A DNA stretch of 64,000 nucleotides from Promethearchaeota archaeon (GCA_048939015.1 JBHLPW010000001.1:16185-80184), one strand, 5' to 3'; shown: positions 26,657 to 40,133, counted from the first letter of the stretch. Numbers and translations: made by a program. Notes: generated by a model not told the origin, from the letters alone.

Positions 26657-27175
26657 GTGGTTGTGGTAGGCGATGGTGGTGTAGGAAAAACATCTATGGT
26701 TCTCCGCTACTGTGAGAATACCTTTAAAGAAAACTATATTATGACTATTGGTTCTAATTTCTCCACCAAGCAAGTTGATTTAGATGAATACCCAAACTTT
26801 TTGATTAAGCTCCAGTTATGGGATTTAGCAGGCCAGAAACATTTCAGTTTTGTTCGTCCACCATTTTATAGGGGAGCAACAGCCATTGTGTATGTCTTTG
26901 ACCTTACGCGGAGGAGTTCTTTTCAGAACATACTAAATTGGAAAGCTGAAGTGGAAAAAGTAATTGGTGATGGAAAGCCAAGTATTTTAGTAGGAAATAA
27001 AATAGATTTAGCAGAACAGGGACAAAGAGAAGTAGGAGAAGGGGATGGAGAAGCATTAAAAGAAGAATTAAATGCTATAAAATATTATGAAACAAGTGCT
27101 AAGAAAGATCTTAGAGTATCTCCAGTCTTCCAAGACATTACACGGGCTATCCTAGAGAAGAGTCAAAAGATCTAA
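26657..27175 (+). CDS. Ras/Rab-like small GTPase
   Basis: G1 GDGGVGKTS, switch I YIMTIG, G3 WDLAGQ, G4 GNKIDL, G5 ETSAK. No C-terminal Cys prenylation motif. The GTG start is uncertain (see findings). Confidence 0.85.
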   Translation: MVVVGDGGVGKTSMVLRYCENTFKENYIMTIGSNFSTKQVDLDEYPNFLIKLQLWDLAGQKHFSFVRPPFYRGATAIVYVFDLTRRSSFQNILNWKAEVEKVIGDGKPSILVGNKIDLAEQGQREVGEGDGEALKEELNAIKYYETSAKKDLRVSPVFQDITRAILEKSQKI

Positions 27176-27256
27176 CTTTTTATTATACATAAACCATAAA
27201 TTAAAATTTAGTTGTAAATTTTAGAAGTATAAATCAAATAATATTAGGTAATTTAA

Positions 27257-27976
27257 ATGTTTGGAGCAGGACAAAGAGCTTACGATCGTGCACTTACTGT
27301 TTTTAGTCCAGAAGGACGTTTATTTCAAGTAGAATATGCCTTAGAGGCTGTAAGAAGGGGAACACTTGCTGTAGCTGTTAAATCTAAAGAAGATGTGTGC
27401 CTTGCAGCTCAGATTAAAGTAGCATCTACATTGATGGATGCAGATTCAATTGACAAGATTTTTCAAATAGACGAGCATATAGGAGTGGCAATTTCAGGAT
27501 TGCATGCGGATGCACGAGCACTGATAAATCATTCAAGAGTTCAAGCACAGTCATTTAGACTAACATATGACGAGCCTGTCCGTCTGAGTATGCTAACAAA
27601 AGCAATAGCAGATTTGAAACAGCAATATACGCAGTTTGGAGGTGTTCGACCATGGGGATGTGCACTTTTTTTCATCGGAATTGATGCTAGTGGAACACAA
27701 ATTTATACTACATCTCCAAGTGGTATTTATCGTTCCTTTAAGGCATATGCTATTGGAACAGGAGAGGCATCTGCTAGAGAATATCTTACAGAACACTATA
27801 AAGAGGATATGACTTTCGAAGAATTGATTAATATGGCGTTAAATTCACTTAAAGAATCAATAGATGAAGATGTAACAAAAGAAAATGTTCGACTAGCATA
27901 TATTAAAGGTGAAACTAAAGAGTTTCATATGTGTAATAAACAAGAAGTAGAAGAATTCCTAGCAAAATTAACATAA
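27257..27976 (+). CDS. psmA: Proteasome subunit alpha
   Basis: Canonical N-terminus YDRALTVFSPEGRLFQVEYALEAV, and a length of 239 aa. Confidence 0.95.
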   Translation: MFGAGQRAYDRALTVFSPEGRLFQVEYALEAVRRGTLAVAVKSKEDVCLAAQIKVASTLMDADSIDKIFQIDEHIGVAISGLHADARALINHSRVQAQSFRLTYDEPVRLSMLTKAIADLKQQYTQFGGVRPWGCALFFIGIDASGTQIYTTSPSGIYRSFKAYAIGTGEASAREYLTEHYKEDMTFEELINMALNSLKESIDEDVTKENVRLAYIKGETKEFHMCNKQEVEEFLAKLT

Positions 27977-28083
27977 TTCTATTTTTAACATCTTCATAAA
28001 AGGTTTTATTTTCTCAATCTATATTATAGATATTAATATTACATCTAGAATTTTACTTAAAAACAAAAAGATAGTCGATTTTT

Positions 28084-28476
28084 ATGGCTAAGAAGAAGAT
28101 TAGAGAAGAGTTTGATAAACTTTTTAAGAAAGGAGATGAAAAAGCTATAAAGAAAATGTTAGATAAGAATCCCTGGCTTCTTAATGAAGTTTCAAATACT
28201 ATGGATGCTGGTATGTTAGAACAGAATCAAGTAATAGCAGCATTAGGTGTAATGGAGGATGAACTTGGAGGACCTGTACCAATTGATGAAATTGTATTTA
28301 GCTTAAGAGTTGATTTTAATATTCGGAAAAGTGAAGATGAGATACATAGAATTTTAACTAGCAGTGAAGATCTTAATCTAGTTAAAAGAGAGGCTAATGG
28401 GTGGAGTTTAACTAGTGAAGGAGGGAGATTATGTGATGACTATCTTAACAAAAATTTGGGAAAGTTTGAATTATGA
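28084..28476 (+). CDS. Hypothetical 130-aa protein with a winged-helix-like C-terminal half
   Basis: ATG start, lysine-rich helical N-terminus. The C-terminal PVPIDEIVFSLRVDFNIRKSEDEIHRILTSSEDLNLVKREANGWSLTSEGGRL reads as helix-turn-helix plus a beta wing. Confidence 0.5.
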   Translation: MAKKKIREEFDKLFKKGDEKAIKKMLDKNPWLLNEVSNTMDAGMLEQNQVIAALGVMEDELGGPVPIDEIVFSLRVDFNIRKSEDEIHRILTSSEDLNLVKREANGWSLTSEGGRLCDDYLNKNLGKFEL

Positions 28477-28588
28477 TTAATTAAATATTTATTTTGGCTT
28501 AATGATTTTTAAATTAAACTAACTAATTATTTTGAGATTTTTTGTTTATTAAGTTCATTCTAAATTCTTCTAAAAATAGTTGAGATAT

Positions 28589-31500
28589 ATGGAAGAGAAA
28601 AAAGAGGAAGAATTCGACGACGAATTCGATGAGAACGGATTTGATCCTACAAAAGAGGCATTTTTTTCTGATATGATGGAAATGGAAGAAGAAATCGCTT
28701 CTGAAGCTTATGAATTGGTTGAACATGCTATTAATTTGATTCAATCTCAATATTATGATGATGGGATTGAAATTTTACGGCAAGCCATTGGGTTATATAG
28801 GCAAATCAATAGAGAAGAGGAAATTAATGCAATTAATGATAAAATATCAGAAATTTACATTCTCAAGGAACAGTCCTTCCGAGAAATAGAAACTAAACCT
28901 ATAAGCGAAGGGGAGGTTATTGAGGAAGCTAAATTGATCGAGGAACATGAAGAGATTGATGAGTTGGAAGTTATTGAAGAAGCTGAGATTGTTGAAGATA
29001 TTGAGACTGAAGCTAAAATGATTAGTGAAGCAGATAAGCTAATAGTTGAAGCTCATCAATTAACTAATTCTGGTCAGTTTGAAGATGCTCTTAATAAGTA
29101 TGATGAAGCTGAAAAAATTCTTGAGAAATTAAATAAATCAGAAGAAGTTGATAGATTATTTGTATTGATTGAAGAATGTTATAGTAGAAAGGCTGAATAT
29201 TTACGTGGTGTTAAGAAAGAAGAAATAGAAGCGGATATGGAATTAGAGGTATCACTAAGCATAGAACAGAAAAAGGAACAAAAATTGGAACAATTTATGG
29301 AGGCTAAAAAGAGAGAAGAGGAAATTTCAACTGAGGCATACGAAATTTTAGATCAAGCAGTAGAAAAAGCTAAAATGTACGAGTATGATCAAGCTATAGA
29401 ATTATATACAAAAGGAATAAGTTTATTTGAGGAACTGAAATGGACATATGAGGTTAACAGAATTCAAGACACTGTTGAACAATTAGAAAAAGAAAAGATT
29501 AATCATCTTAAAGCTGTTGAGAAAGAAAGAATAGAGAGTCAGCAAAAAATTGAAGTTGAATTACAACAAGAGGAAATCATTGATCAGCATGCAAAAGAGA
29601 TAGGTGAGCAGGAAAAACTTGCACAAATGGAAAGGCTGAAAGGAATAGAATTTCAAAAAATGGAACAAGAATTCTTTAAGGCACAAATTGATAATATGGC
29701 AACAGAAGCAGTTAGGATGGCACGTGAATATGAACTTGATATGCAGAAAGCGATTAAAGAGGGAAAATTAGTAGAGGAATGTATATATCCTAAAGTAATT
29801 GAGATTTATAAAAAAATAAAAGATTTATTAATTGATAAAGGTTGGAATAAGGAAGCAGCTATTTATGATGATACAATTGATGTTTATATACAAAAATTCG
29901 AGAATGATAAAAAAATAAGGCAAATTGAGGCAGAGAAAGCTAAAAAGCAAAAAGAGACTGAGGAATTATTAAAAGCCAAGGAACAAGAAGTAGAAGTTCG
30001 AATTAGTGAAGAACAACAACAAATTCTAGAAAAACAACGTCAAAAAACAATAGAGATTGAGAATATTCGAAATGAAATTGATGAAATGACTAAAAAAGCT
30101 GAAAGAATTGCGAGAGAGTATGAAGTAGCATTAAGAAAGGGCAAATTTGAGCTGAAATGTCCTTATCCTAAAATTATAAGCATTTATGAAAGAGCTCAGC
30201 AAATGTCATTAGACAGAGGGTGGGAGACAGACGTTAAAATCTTTGCAAATCAGATTTATAATTATAAACAAAAGTTTGAGAAAGATAATCGATTAAGACA
30301 AGTAGAAGCTGAAAAAGCAAGAAAAAAAGAAGAGATTGAAGAAACATTAAAAGTGAGAAAAGAAGAAACTCATGTAGGACTAGATGTAGAAAAGTTAAAG
30401 CTTCTTGAAGAGCAAAAAAGATTAGAAGAAGAAAAAGAAGATTTTGATTCTACAATCGATATAATGGTAAATCGAGCTGAAAAAATGGTTCGAGAATATA
30501 ATTCTGAAATGAAAAAAGCCATAAAAAAAGGTACATTAGCAGAAAACCCTCCTTTTTTGAAAATTATAGGAATATATGAAAGAGTTAAAAGAATGGTACT
30601 TGAAAGAGGGCGTGAAGAAGAAGCTAAAGCATATAGCACTCAGATTAATTTTTATACTCAAAAATTAGAACAGGATAATAAATTACGAGAAGTAGAGGCT
30701 AAAAAGGCACAGAGAGAAAAAGCACTCGAAGAAATGCATAAGATTGGTAAACAAATTGGTGTAGATGAGGATAAGTTAAGTGCAATAGAAAAAAAGAAAG
30801 AATTAGAAGATTTTGAAAAATATATTGATGAAAGTATAAATAGAGCCGAAAAATTGGTTCGAGATTATGAAATGGCTTTGAGAAAAGCTTTTAAGGATGG
30901 AGAAGTAATAAGAAGTACTCCATATCCTGATGCTATTGAAATTTATAAAGAACTTCGAGAAAAAGTATATGCAAGAGGATGGAAAGATCAAGCTGAAGTG
31001 TATGCTAATCAGATTAAAATTTATCAAGAGAAATTAGATAAGCATGAGAAATTACTAGAAGTTGAGGCTCAAAAAGCTCAAAGAGAAAAAGAAATTGAAG
31101 CAATGCATAAGGTCGAGGGACAAGTTGAAGTTGATCATAAAAAACTAGAAATTATTGAAAGAGAAAGAGAGGAAAAAGAATTCCAGGAATATATTGCTGA
31201 AGAAATCAAGAAAGCAGGAAAACTTGAAAGAGAATTTGATTTAACTATGAAAAAAGCTATAAAAAAAGGAGAAATAATGGAACAAACACCTTATCCTGAA
31301 ATAATTGAACTTTATAAAATATTACGAGAAAAAGTGTATGTAAGAGGATGGAGAGATCAAGCTGAAGTATATGCTAATCAGATTAAAATCTATCAAGAGA
31401 AGTTAGAGAAGCATGAGAGATTACTAGAAGTTGAGGCTCAAAAAGCCCAAAGAGAAAGAGACATTGAAGAGATGCATAAATCCGCAAAAGAAGTCGAAGT

Positions 31501-34500
31501 GGACCAGGAAAAACTAGTAAGTGTTGATATTAAGAAAGAAGAAAAAGAATTTCAGAAATTTATAACGGGAGAAGTAAATAAAGCAGAGAAACTTGAAAGA
31601 GAATTCGATTCAGTTATGAAAAAAGCTATTAAAAAAGGCGAAATTTTAGAACAAACGCCCTATCTTGAAATAATAAACATATATAAAGAAATACGAGAAA
31701 AAGTGTATGCAAGAGGATGGAGAGATCAAGCTGAAGTATATGCTAATCAGATTAAAATTTATCAAGAGAAGTTAGAGAAACATGAGAAATTACTAGAAGT
31801 TGAGGCTCAAAAAGCCCAAAAAGAAAGAGATATTGAAGAGATGCATAAGTTAGCAAAGGATATTCATGTAGATCAAAAGAAAATGGCTGTTCTTGACAAG
31901 AAAAAAGAGGAAAAAGATTTTCAAGGTTATATAACAGGAGAAGTAAATAAAGCAGAGAAACTTGAAAGAGAATTCGATTCAGTTATGAAAAAAGCTATTA
32001 AAAAAGGCGAAATTTTAGAACAAACGCCCTATCTTGAAATAATAAACATATATAAAGAAATACGAGAAAAAGTGTATGCAAGAGGATGGAGAGATCAAGC
32101 TGAAGTATATGCTAATCAGATTAAAATCTATCAAGAGAAGTTAGAGAAGCATGAGAGATTACTAGAAGTTGAGGCTCAAAAAGCCCAAAGAGAAAGAGAC
32201 ATTGAAGAGATGCATAAATCCGCAAAAGAAGTCGAAGTGGACCAGGAAAAACTAGTAAGTGTTGATATTAAGAAAGAAGAAAAAGAATTTCAGAAATTTA
32301 TAACAGGAGAAGTAAATAAAGCAGAGAAACTTGAAAGAGAATTCGATTCAGTTATGAAAAAAGCTATTAAAAAGGGGGAAGTTCTAGAACAAACGCCCTA
32401 TCTTGAAATAATAAACATATATAAAGAAATACGAGAAAAAGTGTATGCAAGAGGATGGAAAGATCAAGCTGAAGTATATGCTAATCAGATTAAAATCTAT
32501 CAAGAGAAGTTAGAGAAGCATGAGAGATTACTAGAAGTTGAGGCTCAAAAAGCCCAAAGAGAAAAAGAATTAGAAGAATTACAAAAAGCTGGAAGAAAAG
32601 AAGTCAAACCCTTTAAACCTGAGAAATTAGAGGAACTTAAAGCTGAAAAAGAAGAGGATATATTAGTAGATAAAGCAATGAATCTCATTGATGAGGCAGA
32701 AAAGGATGTAAAGAGTTATGAATTAAGCATGAAGAAAGATATTTTAGCATATTCCAGTCCTTATGAGCAAGCAATATCAAATTATGAAGAAGCTCGAGAA
32801 TTATTCAAAAAAGTTGGTTGGAATGATGAAGCTAATCGTTTGATTAATACAATCAATTTCTATAAAGATAAAAAAGAAAAAGATGAGAAATTAAGAGAAA
32901 TAGAGGAAGAAAAATTAAAGAAACCTGAGTTTGAAATGATAGCAACTCAATATGATGTTGATAAAGATTTTCAAGAAAGACAAAAAAGACTATTAGAAAT
33001 TCAACAGAAAAAGAAGGAAAGTGATGATATTGCTGCAGGAATTTTTAATATGATTCAAGATGCTGAAAGAATGGCTCAGGAATATGAATTAAATATAAAA
33101 AGTGGGATTTTTAATTTCGAGGCACCATATGAAACGATTATTGAAATTTATCGAGAAGCAAGAAAAGAATTCGAAAAAATAGATTGGAAAGAAGAATCAG
33201 CTAAACTAATCGAAACGATTAATTTTTACAAGGAAAAATTAGCAAACGATAATAAAATACGTGCCTTAGAAGCTGAAAAAGTTAAGAAACGAGAAGAAGA
33301 GTTAATGCTTCAACAAAAATTGCTTGAACAAGCAAGAGTTGAACAAGAACAAATATTAAAACAACGAAAAGAGACTTTACATTTGAAAGAAGAACGAATA
33401 GCTCAATTTGAAACAAAAAAAGATAAAGCATTTCGTTTAATGGATCAAGCTAAGCGTGAATTAAGACAAAATCAATTTGATAAAGCGATTGAAATTTATA
33501 AAGAAAGTGAAGAAATATTTTCAGAAATAGAATGGCAAGAAGGAATCAGGATGGTTCGTGATTCGATTACAATGATTATGAATAAGAAAAAAGCTTATGA
33601 ACTTGAACAAGAAGCACTCGAAAAGAAAAAAGTTGAAAAACTCCTTATTGAAGAAAAATTGGAAGAAAAGTTAGTTGAGGCTCAAATTATAAAAGAGCGA
33701 CAACAAGAAGAGAAAAGAAAGGAATTACTTAAAATTCAGAGAGCAAAGGAGCAGGAAAGAGAAATATCTGAAGAAGCATATGGACTTTTAGAAGAAGGCA
33801 CCCGATTAATGGATCGAGGTAAATTTATTGAAGCATACGAGAATTATATAGCTGCGCGAGAATTATTTCAACAAATATCTTGGCAAAGAGAAGTTTCACG
33901 GATAAATAATGACCTTTTATTCAAACTTAAGAAGGAACAAAAGCAGGCTGAGATTCTAAAAGAAATTAAAATAAAGAAAATTGAAGAAGAAAAAGAAATG
34001 ACTTTATTAAAGCAACAAGCTAAAATAGAACGTAAAGAACTTGAAAAAAGAAAGAAGGAAGAGAAACGTAAACTTGCTAAAGAAGAACTTGAAAAAAAAA
34101 TATCTATAAAATTAAATAGAGCAAAAAGATTAATTGAAGAGTTTAGATACAACGAGGGAGTTTTAATTCTGAGAGAAGAAATCCAAAGATTAACGAAATT
34201 AGATAAACTAGCTGAAATCGAAATGATAAACGAGCAAATTAGTAATATTAAAACTGAAACCCAAATTCCATTAATAACATATGATACACCTTTTGATCTT
34301 TTTGAAAATAAGAACTTTGAATCTGCCTATAAAGCGTTGGATAGAGCTCTTGTATCAATAAACAATAACCGTTTGAAAAAATCTATTTCTGAATTAAATG
34401 AGGCAAAATTCAAACTTGAAGAACTTAAATTTGGACAAAATTTTATTAATTTAATTAATGAAAAATTAATTGAGTTCAAAACTGAGATAAGTAAGAGCCC

Positions 34501-34633
34501 AATTAAAGAAATACATGAAGTTAAAAAAGAAATTGTTATAGATGAGATGGAAGAACTTAGAAAACGTGTTGCTGCGAGAAGGGAAGAAAGAAGGAGAAAA
34601 GTTTTAGATTTATTGGGAAAGAGCGATGAATGA
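28589..34633 (+). CDS. Giant (~2,014 aa) repeat protein: array of three-helix MIT/TPR-like modules separated by charged coiled-coil spacers
   Basis: Single uninterrupted ORF (TTG 28580 or, more likely, ATG 28589). E/K/R/Q-dominated, with a strict ~123-aa periodicity carrying conserved PY, GW and YANQIKIY positions. Confidence 0.85.
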   Translation: MEEKKEEEFDDEFDENGFDPTKEAFFSDMMEMEEEIASEAYELVEHAINLIQSQYYDDGIEILRQAIGLYRQINREEEINAINDKISEIYILKEQSFREIETKPISEGEVIEEAKLIEEHEEIDELEVIEEAEIVEDIETEAKMISEADKLIVEAHQLTNSGQFEDALNKYDEAEKILEKLNKSEEVDRLFVLIEECYSRKAEYLRGVKKEEIEADMELEVSLSIEQKKEQKLEQFMEAKKREEEISTEAYEILDQAVEKAKMYEYDQAIELYTKGISLFEELKWTYEVNRIQDTVEQLEKEKINHLKAVEKERIESQQKIEVELQQEEIIDQHAKEIGEQEKLAQMERLKGIEFQKMEQEFFKAQIDNMATEAVRMAREYELDMQKAIKEGKLVEECIYPKVIEIYKKIKDLLIDKGWNKEAAIYDDTIDVYIQKFENDKKIRQIEAEKAKKQKETEELLKAKEQEVEVRISEEQQQILEKQRQKTIEIENIRNEIDEMTKKAERIAREYEVALRKGKFELKCPYPKIISIYERAQQMSLDRGWETDVKIFANQIYNYKQKFEKDNRLRQVEAEKARKKEEIEETLKVRKEETHVGLDVEKLKLLEEQKRLEEEKEDFDSTIDIMVNRAEKMVREYNSEMKKAIKKGTLAENPPFLKIIGIYERVKRMVLERGREEEAKAYSTQINFYTQKLEQDNKLREVEAKKAQREKALEEMHKIGKQIGVDEDKLSAIEKKKELEDFEKYIDESINRAEKLVRDYEMALRKAFKDGEVIRSTPYPDAIEIYKELREKVYARGWKDQAEVYANQIKIYQEKLDKHEKLLEVEAQKAQREKEIEAMHKVEGQVEVDHKKLEIIEREREEKEFQEYIAEEIKKAGKLEREFDLTMKKAIKKGEIMEQTPYPEIIELYKILREKVYVRGWRDQAEVYANQIKIYQEKLEKHERLLEVEAQKAQRERDIEEMHKSAKEVEVDQEKLVSVDIKKEEKEFQKFITGEVNKAEKLEREFDSVMKKAIKKGEILEQTPYLEIINIYKEIREKVYARGWRDQAEVYANQIKIYQEKLEKHEKLLEVEAQKAQKERDIEEMHKLAKDIHVDQKKMAVLDKKKEEKDFQGYITGEVNKAEKLEREFDSVMKKAIKKGEILEQTPYLEIINIYKEIREKVYARGWRDQAEVYANQIKIYQEKLEKHERLLEVEAQKAQRERDIEEMHKSAKEVEVDQEKLVSVDIKKEEKEFQKFITGEVNKAEKLEREFDSVMKKAIKKGEVLEQTPYLEIINIYKEIREKVYARGWKDQAEVYANQIKIYQEKLEKHERLLEVEAQKAQREKELEELQKAGRKEVKPFKPEKLEELKAEKEEDILVDKAMNLIDEAEKDVKSYELSMKKDILAYSSPYEQAISNYEEARELFKKVGWNDEANRLINTINFYKDKKEKDEKLREIEEEKLKKPEFEMIATQYDVDKDFQERQKRLLEIQQKKKESDDIAAGIFNMIQDAERMAQEYELNIKSGIFNFEAPYETIIEIYREARKEFEKIDWKEESAKLIETINFYKEKLANDNKIRALEAEKVKKREEELMLQQKLLEQARVEQEQILKQRKETLHLKEERIAQFETKKDKAFRLMDQAKRELRQNQFDKAIEIYKESEEIFSEIEWQEGIRMVRDSITMIMNKKKAYELEQEALEKKKVEKLLIEEKLEEKLVEAQIIKERQQEEKRKELLKIQRAKEQEREISEEAYGLLEEGTRLMDRGKFIEAYENYIAARELFQQISWQREVSRINNDLLFKLKKEQKQAEILKEIKIKKIEEEKEMTLLKQQAKIERKELEKRKKEEKRKLAKEELEKKISIKLNRAKRLIEEFRYNEGVLILREEIQRLTKLDKLAEIEMINEQISNIKTETQIPLITYDTPFDLFENKNFESAYKALDRALVSINNNRLKKSISELNEAKFKLEELKFGQNFINLINEKLIEFKTEISKSPIKEIHEVKKEIVIDEMEELRKRVAARREERRRKVLDLLGKSDE
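29708..33448 (+). repeat. Ten tandem in-frame modules of 366-390 nt (122-130 aa) inside the giant gene
   Basis: Module starts (A-E/G-K/R...EY/F-E/D) are at 29708, 30098, 30476, 30845, 31214, 31583, 31952, 32321, 32696 and 33062. The next, more degenerate module starts at 33449. Confidence 0.85.
31342..32304 (+). repeat. Near-identical repeat core with long perfect direct repeats
   Basis: By direct comparison, 31568-31758 equals 31937-32127 (191 nt, offset 369) and 31342-31566 equals 32080-32304 (225 nt, offset 738). Confidence 0.8.
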
Positions 34634-34683: not shown

Positions 34684-34944
34684 TTAGATTAATAAGTTTT
34701 CTTGAATCTCATTTTCTACTTCTGATTCTATTAAACTCGGTTCAATATTTCTATTTACTGATTCTTCTATTAGATACTCAGTTTTAATTAAATCTCTAAT
34801 GGCGACTCGTATGGCTTCTGATCTATTTGGAAATTTCCCATCAATAACAAGTATCTCTAAGACTTTTAAATAAGATTCTGGTAAATTAACTGAAATTAAT
34901 TTAATGTTAGACACCAATTTTTTTACATATTGATGAATATACAT
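34684..34944 (-). CDS. Ribbon-helix-helix (CopG family) transcriptional regulator
   Basis: KLISVNLPESYLKVLEILVIDGKFPNRSEAIRVAIRDLI is the beta-strand/helix/helix RHH signature. Confidence 0.65.
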   Translation of the reverse strand: MYIHQYVKKLVSNIKLISVNLPESYLKVLEILVIDGKFPNRSEAIRVAIRDLIKTEYLIEESVNRNIEPSLIESEVENEIQENLLI

Positions 34945-35210: not shown

Positions 35211-35528
35211 ATGTCAAGTATTGAAAACCAATTAAAAGATCATTTAAAAAATGGAAATGATTGGGAAAAAATGGAGACCCCTGTTCCGGGTGTTTTTGTA
35301 GTAAAGGTGCCCGCAACAAAAACGAAACCTGCATTACTCTTCTTAGAAATTAATCCTTTAAAGGACGATGGAAAACCTTTAAAAAAGAGAGGATTATTTG
35401 TAGGAAATAAAGAAATGCTTTTAAAATTTAGTGAAGCATTGAATGATGATAAAACATTTCAATTAATTGGGGAATTAGAAAAAATTAATCCGGAATCAAC
35501 GAAAAATACTAAAAAACTAAAGATGTAA
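35211..35528 (+). CDS. Hypothetical 105-aa protein
   Basis: ATG preceded by aggagg. No family recognised. Confidence 0.5.
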   Translation: MSSIENQLKDHLKNGNDWEKMETPVPGVFVVKVPATKTKPALLFLEINPLKDDGKPLKKRGLFVGNKEMLLKFSEALNDDKTFQLIGELEKINPESTKNTKKLKM

Positions 35529-36690: not shown

Positions 36691-37656
36691 ATGAGCTTAG
36701 ATACACCTTGGGTAGAAAAATATCGACCACACACATTTGAAGAAATTGTAAGTCAGAGTATTGCTATAAAAAATTTAAAAGAATTTGCAAAATCAACTAA
36801 TATTCCTCATATCATTTTTGCTGGTCCAGCAGGAACTGGAAAAACTAGTACAGCTTTAATAATAGCAAGGTATTTTCTTAAAGAAGAGGAATTTGAAACA
36901 AATCTCTTAGAATTAAATGCTTCAGATACCGTTAGAATTGATTTTGTTAGGAGTATTCTTAAAAATTTTGTCAATCAAAATATAATTAGAAATGGTGCGA
37001 TAAAATTTGTAATTTTAGATGAAGCTGATAATATACCTGGACAAGTTCAACAAGCTCTTAGAAGAATTATAGAAAAAGCATCTATTAATGTTAAATTCAT
37101 TTTTTTATGCAATTATATCAATAAAATAATAGATCCAATCGTTTCTCGATGTGCAGTATTTAGATTTGTAAACTTACCAAAAGAAAGCATAATAGATAGA
37201 CTAAAATATATTACTCAACAAGAAAAGTTAAAAATCCCTTCTAAAAAAGCCGAACAGTTTTACAATCAATTATTTTTTATTTCAGGAGGAGATTTAAGAA
37301 AAGCAATTAATACTCTTCAGATGGCTGTGTCTCTAGAACTTTTGGAAAATTTAGATTTAAACGAAATATTAAGAATTTCTGGATTTTTAGATAAAGATAC
37401 GTTAAATAACTTAATTTCAACATTAAAAAGTAAAGATTTTAAGAGTTCAAAAGATATTATAGATTCAATTGAAATTCTTGACTGTAACAATTTCATAAGA
37501 CAAATATCAGAAGTTTTATCGCTATTACCTTTAGATCCCAGAAATTTAAGTAATTTAAAGACATATTTAGGGGAAATTGATTTTCGATTAAGTCAAGGTG
37601 CTGATGAAAAAATCCAAATTACAGCACTTTTAGCAGAAATTATTGAAAATTTATAA
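36691..37656 (+). CDS. rfcS: Replication factor C small subunit
   Basis: PWVEKYRP, Walker A GPAGTGKTS, Walker B ILDEADNI, arginine-finger SRCAVFRF, sensor-2 GGDLRKAIN. Confidence 0.9.
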   Translation: MSLDTPWVEKYRPHTFEEIVSQSIAIKNLKEFAKSTNIPHIIFAGPAGTGKTSTALIIARYFLKEEEFETNLLELNASDTVRIDFVRSILKNFVNQNIIRNGAIKFVILDEADNIPGQVQQALRRIIEKASINVKFIFLCNYINKIIDPIVSRCAVFRFVNLPKESIIDRLKYITQQEKLKIPSKKAEQFYNQLFFISGGDLRKAINTLQMAVSLELLENLDLNEILRISGFLDKDTLNNLISTLKSKDFKSSKDIIDSIEILDCNNFIRQISEVLSLLPLDPRNLSNLKTYLGEIDFRLSQGADEKIQITALLAEIIENL

Positions 37657-37701
37657 GATTTAGAAATATTTAAAAAAAAATTAATCTTAAGGTTAAGAGA
37701 T

Positions 37702-38748
37702 TTGACTGAAGAGATTCCAATTTGGCGAATAAAATACCATCCTAAGAATTTGGATAAAATTTATGGAAGAGAAACGGTTAAAAACATTTTAAAACATATT
37801 ATTCAACGAAATAATTTCCCTCATTTATTGTTTGTAGGAGTGAAAGGTATAGGCAAAACTACAATTGCTCAATTATTTTCAAAAGAATTTTTAGATAAAG
37901 ATTATGATGCTAATTTTAAATTAGTTTATGCGAATGTTCCTTTAACTGATGAAGAAAGAAAACAAGCAAGATCTGATGCATATGTTTCTACAAATAAAAT
38001 TGGTAGTAGTGCAGGAAGGAGAATTACAACACCAGCGTTTATTCAAGCAAGAATAAAGCCATTTGTTCAATTAAAAGTGTTAGGTAATGCTCCTTTCAAG
38101 ATTCTTGTCGTAAAAAACTTCGAAGCTTTAGGATCTAATCAACAAGGTTTTAGAAGATTGATGGAAATATATGGTACAAATTGTAGGATGATTTTAATAA
38201 CATCTAAAATATCGAGTGTTATTAATCCTATAGTCAGTAGATGTCAAATCATTTTATTCTCTCGTGTAAAATTCAATGAATTTAAAGAACTGATTCAAAT
38301 TATTGCTAAACAAGAATCCTTAGATATTAAAGATGAGATTATAGAGATTTTATATCGTATATCCGATGCTAAAATCTCTCAGGCAATTGATCTTTTACAA
38401 TTATGTAGTATTACTGGAAATATTATTAATACTGAAAGTCTGTATGAAAACGTTCAGAAATTTCATACGGATCTTATAAAGAGTCTTTTATTAGTCGCTC
38501 TTAAAGGAGATTTTCCGAAAACACGGGAATTAGCACGCAAAATCCTTTCGAATTATAAATTTAGTGCTCATGATTTGTATAAACTTTTGCTTATTGAAAT
38601 TAATAAATTACCACTAAGTAAATTTACGAGGATTAATTTAATTAATCTCATTGCAGATTCTGACTTTAGAACTCTTGATGGTAGAGATATTGATATTCAA
38701 ATATCTGCTCTTCTGTCGAAAATTTGTCTGTTTTCTGAAAATTTATGA
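37702..38748 (+). CDS. Divergent RFC small-subunit paralogue, Walker B degenerate
   Basis: TTG start. IWRIKYHPKNLDKIYG (box II), GVKGIGKTT (P-loop kept), ILVVKNFEAL in place of DEAD, SRCQIILF kept. About 50 aa inserted between the P-loop and the Walker B position. Confidence 0.7.
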   Translation: MTEEIPIWRIKYHPKNLDKIYGRETVKNILKHIIQRNNFPHLLFVGVKGIGKTTIAQLFSKEFLDKDYDANFKLVYANVPLTDEERKQARSDAYVSTNKIGSSAGRRITTPAFIQARIKPFVQLKVLGNAPFKILVVKNFEALGSNQQGFRRLMEIYGTNCRMILITSKISSVINPIVSRCQIILFSRVKFNEFKELIQIIAKQESLDIKDEIIEILYRISDAKISQAIDLLQLCSITGNIINTESLYENVQKFHTDLIKSLLLVALKGDFPKTRELARKILSNYKFSAHDLYKLLLIEINKLPLSKFTRINLINLIADSDFRTLDGRDIDIQISALLSKICLFSENL

Positions 38749-38777
38749 TAAAGATAATATTTATGTGAGTAATATAA

Positions 38778-40133
38778 ATGTCAAAAAAAGATTCAGATAT
38801 TCCATGGGTGGAGAAATATAGACCAAAAAGCATTAAGGAAATGGCTTTGCCCACAGCTAGACTTGGTAGACAACGAGTGAAATTAGATGAAGAATTAGAG
38901 CGTTTTTTAAGAAATTTCTTTAAAGAAAGAAAAAAAATTAATTTAGAAAATAAGGAAATTCGAGAATTTAATAGAAGAGTTATTGAAAAAGAGCAAAAAG
39001 AAGAAAAGCAAATATCTCCTGAGGCTGCCGCAGTTCTTTTGGAAGGACCCCCAGGTATTGGAAAGACATCCATTGTTTATGCTCTTGCTAATGATTTTAA
39101 TATGGAAGTTATAGAAACTAATGCCTCTGACACACGAACGAGGAGTACATTGGAAAAAAGATTAAAGGAAACCACCAAATCTCGTGGAATCATGGATTTT
39201 ATTATGGAATCAAAAGAAAAATTAATATTAATTGATGAAATTGATGGAATTTATGGAGTTCAAGATCGAGGGGCAATTCCAACTGTATTGGAATTAATTC
39301 AAAACACTCAGTTCCCAATCATAATGTGTTCAAATGAATATAAAACAAATCTACAACCTTTATATAATAAGATAAAGAGGTATGAGGTTCAACCCTTACA
39401 CAAGAATGAAGTAATCAAAATAGCTAAAGATATTCTAAAAAAGGAAAATATTACTAATCTTAAATCCGATGATTTAGAGTTAATTATAGATAAAAATAAT
39501 GGAGATTTAAGAGGTGTGATTAATGATATTCAAGGCATTGGTCAAAGTAAGATAGATCAAAATGTTCGGGAATTAATTCTAAATTTACATCGTGATACTC
39601 TAGAAGAGATTTTCTCACTAATTAGAGACTTATTTAAAGTATCATCTTTAAGAGAAGCTCGAAGTTTAGCTGATAAGTCCGATGTCGATTACAATTTTTT
39701 GTATAAATGGATAAATGAAAATCTACTTTCTTTCATAAAATCAAACAGGGATCTAGTTAATGCTTTTGAGAATCTCTCATTGGCAGATGAAATTTTTGGG
39801 AGAATCAATTCTACTCAATATTGGGGATTATTACCATACTTTTTTGATCTATTCGCTGGTGGAGTTGCTTTATCGCGAAAAGATACGACTATATCAAAAG
39901 GATTTCAAAGAGTTGTATTTCCAAGATATACAACTGGAACATATTTTTCTTTAACAAATGTTGAAATGGAATTCTTTGAAAAGATTACTAAAAAGTATGA
40001 AATCTCTCAAATTGATTTCATCCAAAATTTTCTTCCGTTTTTAAAAGTTTTATGTGGTTCCTCAAGAAAGCAACTTAAGAATGTAAGTGATTGGCTAGAA
40101 TTAGATGCTAAAGAAAAAAAAGTGTTAAAATGA
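38778..40133 (+). CDS. rfcL: Replication factor C large subunit
   Basis: PWVEKYRPKSIKEM, GPPGIGKTS, LILIDEIDGI, GDLRGVINDIQ. A charged ~35-aa insertion lies between box II and the P-loop. Confidence 0.85.
   Translation: MSKKDSDIPWVEKYRPKSIKEMALPTARLGRQRVKLDEELERFLRNFFKERKKINLENKEIREFNRRVIEKEQKEEKQISPEAAAVLLEGPPGIGKTSIVYALANDFNMEVIETNASDTRTRSTLEKRLKETTKSRGIMDFIMESKEKLILIDEIDGIYGVQDRGAIPTVLELIQNTQFPIIMCSNEYKTNLQPLYNKIKRYEVQPLHKNEVIKIAKDILKKENITNLKSDDLELIIDKNNGDLRGVINDIQGIGQSKIDQNVRELILNLHRDTLEEIFSLIRDLFKVSSLREARSLADKSDVDYNFLYKWINENLLSFIKSNRDLVNAFENLSLADEIFGRINSTQYWGLLPYFFDLFAGGVALSRKDTTISKGFQRVVFPRYTTGTYFSLTNVEMEFFEKITKKYEISQIDFIQNFLPFLKVLCGSSRKQLKNVSDWLELDAKEKKVLK

Follow-up and report, generated by a model that had tools for sequence, protein, structure and literature searches.

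A giant acidic beads-on-a-string protein of Loki-type Asgard archaea, with MIT-like modules bracketing an array of family-specific three-helix bundles

Introduction

The MIT domain resembles approximately 1.5 TPR units. In eukaryotes, a code of MIT domains and MIT-interacting motifs (MIMs) recruits enzymes to ESCRT-III polymers, and no closer relatives of eukaryotes are known than the Asgard archaea. The eukaryotic tandem-MIT proteins Vta1/LIP5, ULK3, and calpain-7 possess two MIT domains each, and we know of no protein that carries more than two. MIT domains recognize the MIMs of ESCRT-III, including in Asgard Vps4, and the host lineage relies on this recognition in its ESCRT system (PMC7240154). 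Discussion of archaeal MIT domains has so far been limited to the N-terminus of Vps4/CdvC (PMC7240154, PMC10936438), and a 2024 survey of ESCRT systems treated MIT for Vps4 only. In this study, we analyzed a stretch of 64,000 nucleotides from a Promethearchaeota archaeon (GCA_048939015.1 JBHLPW010000001.1:16185-80184; hereafter, the window), in which one gene encodes a giant protein of 2,014 residues. This protein is best explained as a cytoplasmic, strongly acidic beads-on-a-string protein specific to Loki-type Asgard archaea. It very probably consists of 15–17 independently folding three-helix bundles, in which MIT-like ends bracket ten family-specific bundles and broken charged connectors join them.

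Several described systems share parts of this layout. The Vps4 and VPS4A-B MIT domain (PF04212; PDB 1yxr, 2jq9, and 2w2u) has the three-helix layout of approximately 70 residues that is found in the short modules of the giant protein, together with their helix 1-2 signature, A..L...A......Y..A..LY. However, Vps4 combines one MIT module per chain with an AAA+ ATPase, whereas the giant protein has 15–17 modules per chain and neither an AAA+ ATPase nor any other effector domain. Its ten central modules differ from the Vps4 MIT domain in their nine-residue Pro-Tyr loop and short helix 2, and they lack a direct MIT signal. Vta1/LIP5, ULK3, and calpain-7 resemble the giant protein in having more than one MIT-type bundle per chain, and their bundles read ESCRT-III tails. 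The two MIT domains of these proteins are adjacent and often packed, whereas the giant protein spreads five to six MIT-like and ten derived bundles across 2,000 residues with long connectors; no homology to these proteins beyond the domain was found, and only generic MIT matches surfaced in our searches. Spectrin rods likewise string many three-helix bundles in tandem, joined by helical linkers, and their length is set by the repeat number. A spectrin repeat (approximately 106 residues) has helices of similar length and a continuous linker, whereas the giant protein has unequal helices and broken connectors, and neither Pfam nor the Foldseek hits listed place its modules among spectrin repeats. 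TPR proteins have a tandem period of 34 residues and form a solenoid; the period of the giant protein is 122–130 residues, its bundles are isolated, and TPR matches fall weakly on helices 1-2 of the short modules and helices 2-3 of the long modules. To our knowledge, so large an array on long connectors, built around a derived central module for which Pfam has no model, is new.

Overall architecture of the giant protein

The gene is a single uninterrupted open reading frame (ORF), as the initial annotation had stated. Translation from the ATG at 28589 to the stop codon at 34631-34633 gives 2,014 codons with no internal stop. An in-frame TTG lies at 28580, nine bases before the ATG; the N-termini of the orthologues match the ATG (MEEK...). 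The product is rich in Glu (19.4%) and Lys (14.3%), and its net charge is −82. Between positions 28000 and 34000 of the window, the purine skew of the coding strand is extreme (GC skew 0.33–0.41, AT skew 0.20–0.36) and far exceeds that of the neighboring genes, because the protein is rich in Glu, Lys, Arg, and Gln. The sequence is identical to that of ACFFCV_00185 (P0001), a protein of a metagenome-assembled genome (MAG) that is filed at NCBI as a 'hypothetical protein'. Neither an NCBIfam scan nor a sequence search of the PDB returned a match for the full-length protein. The earlier statement that no characterized archaeal protein with this organization could be named agrees with the NCBIfam result and with our literature searches.

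A hidden Markov model (HMM) built from the ten central units recognizes exactly ten domains in the protein, with per-domain E values of 1e-31 to 2e-43. These are the long modules, L1 to L10. The ten starts given for them in the initial annotation are all in frame and mark homologous units with a period of 122–130 residues. A second HMM, for the short modules, detects three N-terminal copies (N1 to N3), as had been proposed, two clear C-terminal copies (C1 and C2), and one weak C-terminal copy (C3). Approximately three degenerate modules had been thought to close the protein; C1 and C2 bear this out and C3 does so weakly (E 8e-4), whereas the last candidate, at approximately residues 1915–1985, has no statistical support. 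The total of 15–17 three-helix bundles is consistent with the earlier count of about 16, and the acidic N-terminal tail and the basic C-terminal tail are both present. The coordinates of all of these features are collected in Table 1.

Short modules and their similarity to MIT

The flanking short modules are MIT-like at the level of profile similarity, as judged from Pfam, PDB-profile, and hhalign matches. When N2, N3, C1, and C2 were scanned singly, Pfam MIT ranked first or second (E 2e-5 to 2e-3), and two of these matches span the whole 66-position model. The Pfam MIT score is 18.3 bits for the whole protein and 15–25 bits for single modules (18.7–25 bits for N2, N3, C1, and C2). A set of 52 diverse short modules was taken from the orthologues and scanned at a match threshold of E ≤ 0.01. 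Pfam MIT matches 36 of them (best E 5.3e-8), TPR_2 matches 13, and TPR_1 matches 11. The profile of the 52 modules finds the VPS4A MIT domain in the PDB (1yxr, E 9e-6; 2jq9, E 2.1e-5), followed by VPS4B/SKD1 (E 1.5e-3) and MITD1 (E 0.028). Direct alignment of this profile by hhalign with the VPS4A MIT domain (a query identical to PDB 2jq9_A) gave a probability of 94% and an E value of 1.2e-7 over 50 columns. A precomputed PF04212 match is present in 46 of the 120 orthologues listed.

Long modules as a family-specific three-helix bundle

The AlphaFold2 (AF2) model of one long module (residues 987–1073, alignment of 39 sequences) is a three-helix bundle with a predicted local distance difference test (pLDDT) score of 96.5 and a predicted template modeling (pTM) score of 0.85. 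It bears out the three helices per module that had been read from the sequence. The helices comprise residues 2–29, 39–55, and 59–86 of the model, and helices 1 and 2 are joined by a nine-residue loop whose last residues are the conserved Pro-Tyr, at the place where a conserved PY turn had been noted. Helix 2 has 17 residues, compared with at least 28 for helices 1 and 3.

The relationship of the long modules to MIT appears to be transitive only, by way of the short modules. The short-module HMM also matches L9 (E 9e-10) and L10 (E 2.7e-5), and hhalign aligns the long- and short-module profiles over helices 2-3 with a probability of 94–95% and an E value of approximately 1e-7. In a PDB search with the long-module profile, the Sulfolobus Vps4 MIT domain (2w2u) is among the best natural matches and is covered over nearly its whole length, at a weak E value of 0.052. 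The most fitting description of the ten long modules is a new three-helix domain that is specific to the family and of MIT/TPR-like ancestry.

A structural comparison with Foldseek, proposed with the initial annotation, gave a mixed outcome: MIT entries do appear among the neighbors, but none is significant and BAG domains rank above them. The closest neighbors are plant BAG domains (TM-score approximately 0.53), followed by designed bundles, and the archaeal Vps4 MIT structures 2w2u and 2v6y occur at ranks 13–34 with 20–26% identity and TM-scores of 0.30–0.56. The BAG domains of AtBAG1/2 (4hwc and 4hwd) are three-helix bundles of similar size and superimpose with TM-scores of 0.49–0.55 and a root mean square deviation of approximately 4.2–4.7 Å. 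We rejected BAG membership because the E values are 0.8–4.3, the identity is 17–19%, and no Pfam BAG match exists; the similarity is a generic bundle likeness. A PDB search with a profile of the first module (A1) retrieved only a designed PLS-PPR protein by summing weak repeats, and this match was set aside as a repeat artefact.

Across 147 module pairs, the most invariant positions of the repeat are the Glu and the Lys of a [KR]-L-R-E-[IV]-E-A-x-K motif at the start of the helix 3 extension. These two residues are charged and probably exposed. The motif occurs in every long module, for example at 31787-31813 of the window (residues 1067–1075), just past the bundle core. Among the matches examined, a single protein has a different architecture around the long module; this metagenomic protein of 250 residues (P0381) was read by eye as a cold-shock-like N-terminus, one long module, and a C-terminal CxxC pair.

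Connectors between the bundles

Two consecutive modules and their connectors (residues 960–1232) were modeled with AF2 from 147 sequences. The bundle cores have pLDDT values above 90 and the connectors 47–63, and the pTM score of 0.40 means that the inter-module geometry is not defined. In the connector, helix 3 and the following helix 1 are each extended by approximately 20–30 residues and are separated by a five-residue break with a pLDDT below 50. One typical connector is, as read from its sequence, approximately 57% charged and 30% hydrophobic. The spacers had been described as charged coiled coils; the models show low-confidence helices with a break in the middle instead, for which 'charged helical connectors' is the fitting term. 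A long coiled-coil protein of the SMC/Rad50-like or filament-like type was considered and rejected: apart from the low-confidence C-terminal end, no helix in the modeled stretch exceeds 46 residues, loops interrupt the helices in every module, and Pfam domains of such proteins are absent. A Foldseek search with the two-module model, a multi-domain helical query, returned nothing significant.

The isolated bundles bear on the annotation of the homologue in the cultured Promethearchaeum syntrophicum MK-D1, which Imachi et al. list as a 'Tetratricopeptide repeat protein' (DSAG12_01611; PMC7015854). If the family were ordinary TPR-repeat proteins, the modules would stack into a TPR solenoid. Weak Pfam TPR_1/2/11/12 matches in the giant protein and its short modules point in this direction, as do the matches of the short-module profile to designed consensus TPRs and the classical TPR proteins reached at the weak end of the search with the long-module profile. 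However, in each module the match to designed TPRs extends over only approximately 23 columns, or one helix-turn-helix; the high scores of these TPRs are sums across identical repeats. Moreover, the period is 123 residues rather than 34, the connectors have at least 30 residues, and AF2 yields isolated three-helix bundles with an inter-module pTM of 0.40. MIT outscores every TPR family among the short modules, 36 to 13, and none of the 39 long modules scanned matches any TPR family. We consider a TPR solenoid very improbable.

Distribution of the family

A search of 5.8 billion proteins returned 196 relatives, and the 120 listed span 1,158–2,175 residues. Those listed with organism names come from Promethearchaeota/Lokiarchaeota-type MAGs, some of which were labeled by their submitters as Hermod-, Hod-, or Thorarchaeota, and the named proteins among them are all 'hypothetical' or 'TPR repeat' proteins. 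A locus scan, with one genome per GTDB species, found 78 loci in species-representative genomes, all of them Loki-type MAGs save for one bacterially named contig. This contig (L036, DATKTW010000079.1) is filed as 'Candidatus Nanopelagicaceae bacterium'; it carries the giant gene with the same three small neighbors as in the window (orf130, the ribbon-helix-helix gene orf86, and orf105; see below) and is probably a mis-binned archaeal contig. The long-module profile matched 146 proteins at E ≤ 1e-3 among 1.84 billion representatives, including one in a Candidatus Harpocratesius genome; the weak tail of this search consists of ordinary TPR proteins. The largest members of the family have 22 modules and 2,910 residues. 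As far as these sequence searches reach, the family is confined to Promethearchaeota.

The MK-D1 homologue, DSAG12_01611 (QEE15784.2), is also among the proteins matched by the long-module profile and has 2,547 residues with 17 matched stretches. In the published transcript table, it has a value of 254 reads per kilobase per million mapped reads (RPKM), which is comparable to those of ordinary metabolic genes of the same table, and it was not flagged as a eukaryotic signature protein (PMC7015854, Suppl. Table 3). The orthologues are conserved at 35–75% on the protein level with invariant core residues. Literature searches on the family, on DSAG12_01611, and on the accessions found no paper that discusses it. 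The family is real and previously undescribed.

Evolution of the array length

The lengths of the orthologues cluster at approximately 1505, 1632, 1757, 1890, 2010, and 2125 residues, which are steps of one module. Within the giant protein, L1, L2, L3, L9, and L10 are 29–49% identical to every other module (L1-L3 mutually 37–41%). The L4-L8 units share 61–88% protein and 72–91% nucleotide identity, and L5-L8 alone share 69–88% protein and up to 91% nucleotide identity. Tandem Repeats Finder reports a 369-nt period repeated 4.4 times at 30944-32577 with 87% matches. One-to-one positional orthologues exist for L1-L4, L9, and L10 (57–88% identity) and for none of L5-L8, and the shortest complete form (P0046, 1,513 residues, from a closed MAG chromosome) has just L1-L4, L9, and L10 as long modules. 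Therefore, the array was lengthened by duplication of one central module type; it grows and shrinks by whole 123-residue (369-nt) units of this type. The family is thus a clean natural case of protein length evolving through unit duplication.

The repeats are similar enough to raise the question of assembly. Exact nucleotide repeats of 225 nt (31342-31566 and 32080-32304) and 182 nt (31568-31749 and 31937-32118) occur within L5-L8 and are longer than common short reads; the L5-L8 copy number in this MAG is therefore uncertain and could reflect short-read mis-assembly. An ORF that as a whole is an assembly artefact, or a non-coding product of repeat expansion or collapse, is extremely unlikely. 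The same architecture recurs at 78 independent loci, and both a closed MAG chromosome and the complete MK-D1 genome have it; the protein-level conservation described above leaves core residues invariant, and the MK-D1 homologue is transcribed. The doubt is limited to the exact copy number of L5-L8.

Conserved termini

The acidic N-terminal tract contains the motif DPTKEAFF, in which T21, A24, F25, and F26 are invariant among 16 orthologues. The stretch DPTKEAFFSD (28643-28687 of the window, residues 19–33) is the most invariant of the protein within the clade; the MK-D1 homologue lacks this motif. The two phenylalanines of the motif, within an acidic tract, may resemble an FFAT-like motif by eye. 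Near the other end, the region at approximately residues 1915–1985 is probably helical, and Y1914, A1916, L1917, D1918, A1920, E1935, L1936, E1938, and A1939 are invariant or nearly so. The basic C-terminal tail is similar in the MK-D1 homologue and in P0248. Part of this tail (...EELRKRVAARRE...) resembles by eye the MIM1 consensus, (D/E)xxLxxRLxxL(K/R). We rejected it as a MIM1 motif, given that all orthologues have an invariant arginine where the consensus calls for the third hydrophobic residue.

Possible function

The scaffold or tether suggested in the initial annotation is a reasonable reading. By analogy with MIT and TPR units, which bind short peptides in inter-helix grooves, as is established for MIT-MIM recognition by Vps4 (PMC7240154), the giant protein would most likely serve as a multivalent adaptor or tether, and we give a multivalent, length-tunable peptide-binding scaffold or adaptor about an even chance. 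Each bundle would bind a short peptide motif, helical or extended, in its inter-helix groove, in the fashion of MIT and TPR, and the whole protein would act as an adaptor or tether of tunable length whose array engages many copies of a motif on a partner that is polymeric or bound to a membrane. Foremost among the candidate ligands would be the MIM-carrying C-terminus of Asgard ESCRT-III subunits, although ESCRT-III as the specific partner seems unlikely. We infer ligand binding, multivalency as a function, and any ESCRT link by analogy, the tie to ESCRT from the domain similarity. In the fullest form of this proposal, an array of MIT-type readers would grip many ESCRT-III tails as a prokaryotic organizer or tether, its valency and reach set by the 123-residue modules, and the central modules would be a new Asgard-specific MIT branch with a peptide ligand of its own. 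We regard this form as rather doubtful; if true, it would describe an ESCRT-III organizer without a eukaryotic or archaeal counterpart.

Several results weigh against the adaptor and its ESCRT connection. No MIT match in the giant protein reaches the Pfam MIT (PF04212) gathering score of 30 bits. Pfam MIT or any TPR family matches none of 39 diverse long modules at E ≤ 0.1, and the MIT/TPR-like character first proposed for all modules is thus supported for the short ones and only in part for the long ones. Alignment of the long-module profile with the VPS4A MIT domain by hhalign gives a probability of 0.65%, and the Foldseek search of the PDB with the long-module model found nothing at E ≤ 1e-3. 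The best-conserved residues of the repeat are the charged Glu/Lys pair in the helix 3 extension, with no obvious groove. No ESCRT gene lies within the window or the conserved cluster, and the winged-helix and ribbon-helix-helix genes that flank the giant gene are uninformative on membranes and ESCRT. Finally, length change by whole units would fit a mechanical spacer equally well.

Such a spacer, analogous to spectrin, would consist of structural beads that set distance or elasticity in the cytoskeleton, the envelope, or protrusions, with partners only at the conserved termini. The tandem three-helix bundles with helical connectors agree with it, and so does the mode of growth, in which the length varies by whole units while the ends and outer modules stay orthologous. 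Conservation is highest at the termini, where the N-terminus is acidic and contains an invariant motif and the C-terminal tail is basic, and the central modules lack a detectable ligand-binding family signature. However, the 50 Foldseek hits listed for either model include no repeat of the spectrin, alpha-actinin, or plakin type, and there is no Pfam spectrin match. The short helix 2 between two helices of at least 28 residues is unlike spectrin repeats, the connectors are predicted to be broken and of low confidence instead of being continuous helices, and the flanking modules resemble MIT, which is a binding domain. We hold a mechanical rod or elastic spacer to be less likely than the adaptor. 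If the partner were the lokiactin cytoskeleton or a membrane, the giant protein would count as the first element of a spectrin-like membrane skeleton in an archaeon.

With the peptide-binding adaptor, as with the spacer, a link of the giant protein to ESCRT or the cytoskeleton is speculative. The family combines five to six MIT-like and at least ten derived bundles in one chain of 1,500–2,900 residues. It is conserved across Loki-type lineages and transcribed in MK-D1; therefore, it is a concrete candidate, accessible to experiment, for a so far unknown component of Asgard cell organization, with ESCRT regulation, membrane or cytoskeleton tethering, and a molecular ruler as candidate roles. 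It also establishes a new domain family that Pfam does not cover. If the protein is merely a generic helical-repeat scaffold, the value lies mainly in a better annotation than 'hypothetical protein' or 'TPR repeat protein'.

Genomic neighborhood

A core of four genes (a winged-helix gene, the giant gene, a convergent ribbon-helix-helix gene, and orf105) is kept from the lineage of the window to MK-D1, and the wider flanks differ. The upstream gene, orf130, lies 100–250 nt before the giant gene on the same strand in 74 of the 78 loci. It has 567 homologues, of which the 120 listed are 76–100% identical and thus far better conserved than the giant protein; none of those listed has a name or a Pfam domain. 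In Pfam and PDB searches, orf130 gave a single match, a weak similarity of its C-terminal half to the winged helix of eS19 (E 0.004). The MK-D1 counterpart, an 86-residue protein at the same position, retains the winged-helix half (41% identity, E 4e-17). The ribbon-helix-helix gene is present in 55 loci, with a 54% identical counterpart in MK-D1. The orf105 counterpart in MK-D1, DSAG12_01609 (arCOG08221), is 50% identical (E 5.6e-33), and orf105 itself has no Pfam or PDB match.

Table 1. Positions of the giant gene, its modules, and the small genes of the conserved core (window coordinates, except for the last row)
Feature	Position	Strand	Remarks
Giant gene	28589..34633	+	2,014 aa + stop; single uninterrupted ORF
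Acidic N-terminal tract, aa 1-30	28589..28678	+	net charge -10; carries DPTKEAFF
Short module N1, aa 31-101	28679..28891	+	short-module HMM; without own Pfam MIT match; best-conserved module among orthologues
Short MIT-like module N2, aa 139-211	29003..29221	+	Pfam MIT E 2.4e-4, model positions 2-65 of 66
Short MIT-like module N3, aa 241-313	29309..29527	+	Pfam MIT E 2e-5, 25 bits
Long modules L1-L3, aa 363-456, 492-582, 618-711	29675..30721	+	HMM domains; old, diverged copies
Long modules L4-L8, aa 741-835, 864-958, 987-1081, 1110-1204, 1233-1327	30809..32569	+	HMM; L5-L8 are a recent expansion of L4 type
Long modules L9 and L10, aa 1360-1447, 1480-1570	32666..33298	+	intermediate type; helix 1 lacks the 4-residue insert
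Short MIT-like module C1, aa 1606-1675	33404..33613	+	Pfam MIT E 7.8e-4
Short MIT-like module C2, aa 1721-1792	33749..33964	+	Pfam MIT E 1.9e-3, model positions 3-66 of 66
Degenerate short module C3, aa 1842-1890	34112..34258	+	short-module HMM E 8e-4 only; no Pfam match
Conserved helical region, ~aa 1915-1985	34331..34543	+	matches no module HMM and no Pfam family
Basic C-terminal tail ...ELRKRVAARREERRRKVLDLLGKSDE	34544..34630	+	R1997, R1998, and R2001 invariant
orf130, 130 aa, basic N-terminus, winged-helix-like C-terminal half	28084..28476	+	conserved partner gene
orf86, ribbon-helix-helix (CopG-type)	34684..34944	-	Pfam RHH_1 E 1.5e-7; convergent with the giant gene
orf105, 105 aa, no known domain	35211..35528	+	conserved in 54 loci
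Small core genes at locus L079	7661-7921, 15654-15860 (-), 16083-16406		conserved core

The neighbors raise the possibility of a nucleoid- or chromatin-associated or regulatory scaffold, which would work with the winged-helix and ribbon-helix-helix proteins and contact DNA through the basic tail and these partners. The persistence of the four-gene core to MK-D1, where the other flanks differ, and the invariant arginines of the basic tail are in its favor, and a preprint reports DNA binding of Asgard ESCRT-III/VPS4 (10.1101/2021.11.29.470303). However, the giant protein is strongly acidic, the final 30 residues have a net charge of only +1, and no DNA-binding domain was found in the protein by Pfam and NCBIfam scans. 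The adjacent small genes are more simply explained as transcriptional regulators of the giant gene, and we judge a role in the nucleoid improbable.

Among the other genes of the window, the short- and long-module HMMs found no further MIT-like protein, such as Vps4. No tRNA gene is present in the window, and the counts from a scan for sigma-70 promoters and terminators equal the shuffled expectation; this model is uninformative for an archaeon. The giant gene is neighbored by genes for a Ras-family GTPase, a proteasome alpha subunit, two small and one large replication factor C (RFC) subunits, a sirtuin, and a GNAT acetyltransferase, a set that marks the source as an Asgard archaeon. The Ras-family small GTPase gene lies directly upstream of the proteasome alpha subunit gene (26657-27976), and the two RFC small-subunit genes and the RFC large-subunit gene are arranged in tandem (36691-40133). 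This Ras/proteasome/RFC block is syntenic in many Loki-type MAGs and is displaced by insertions of 3–5 kb in others.

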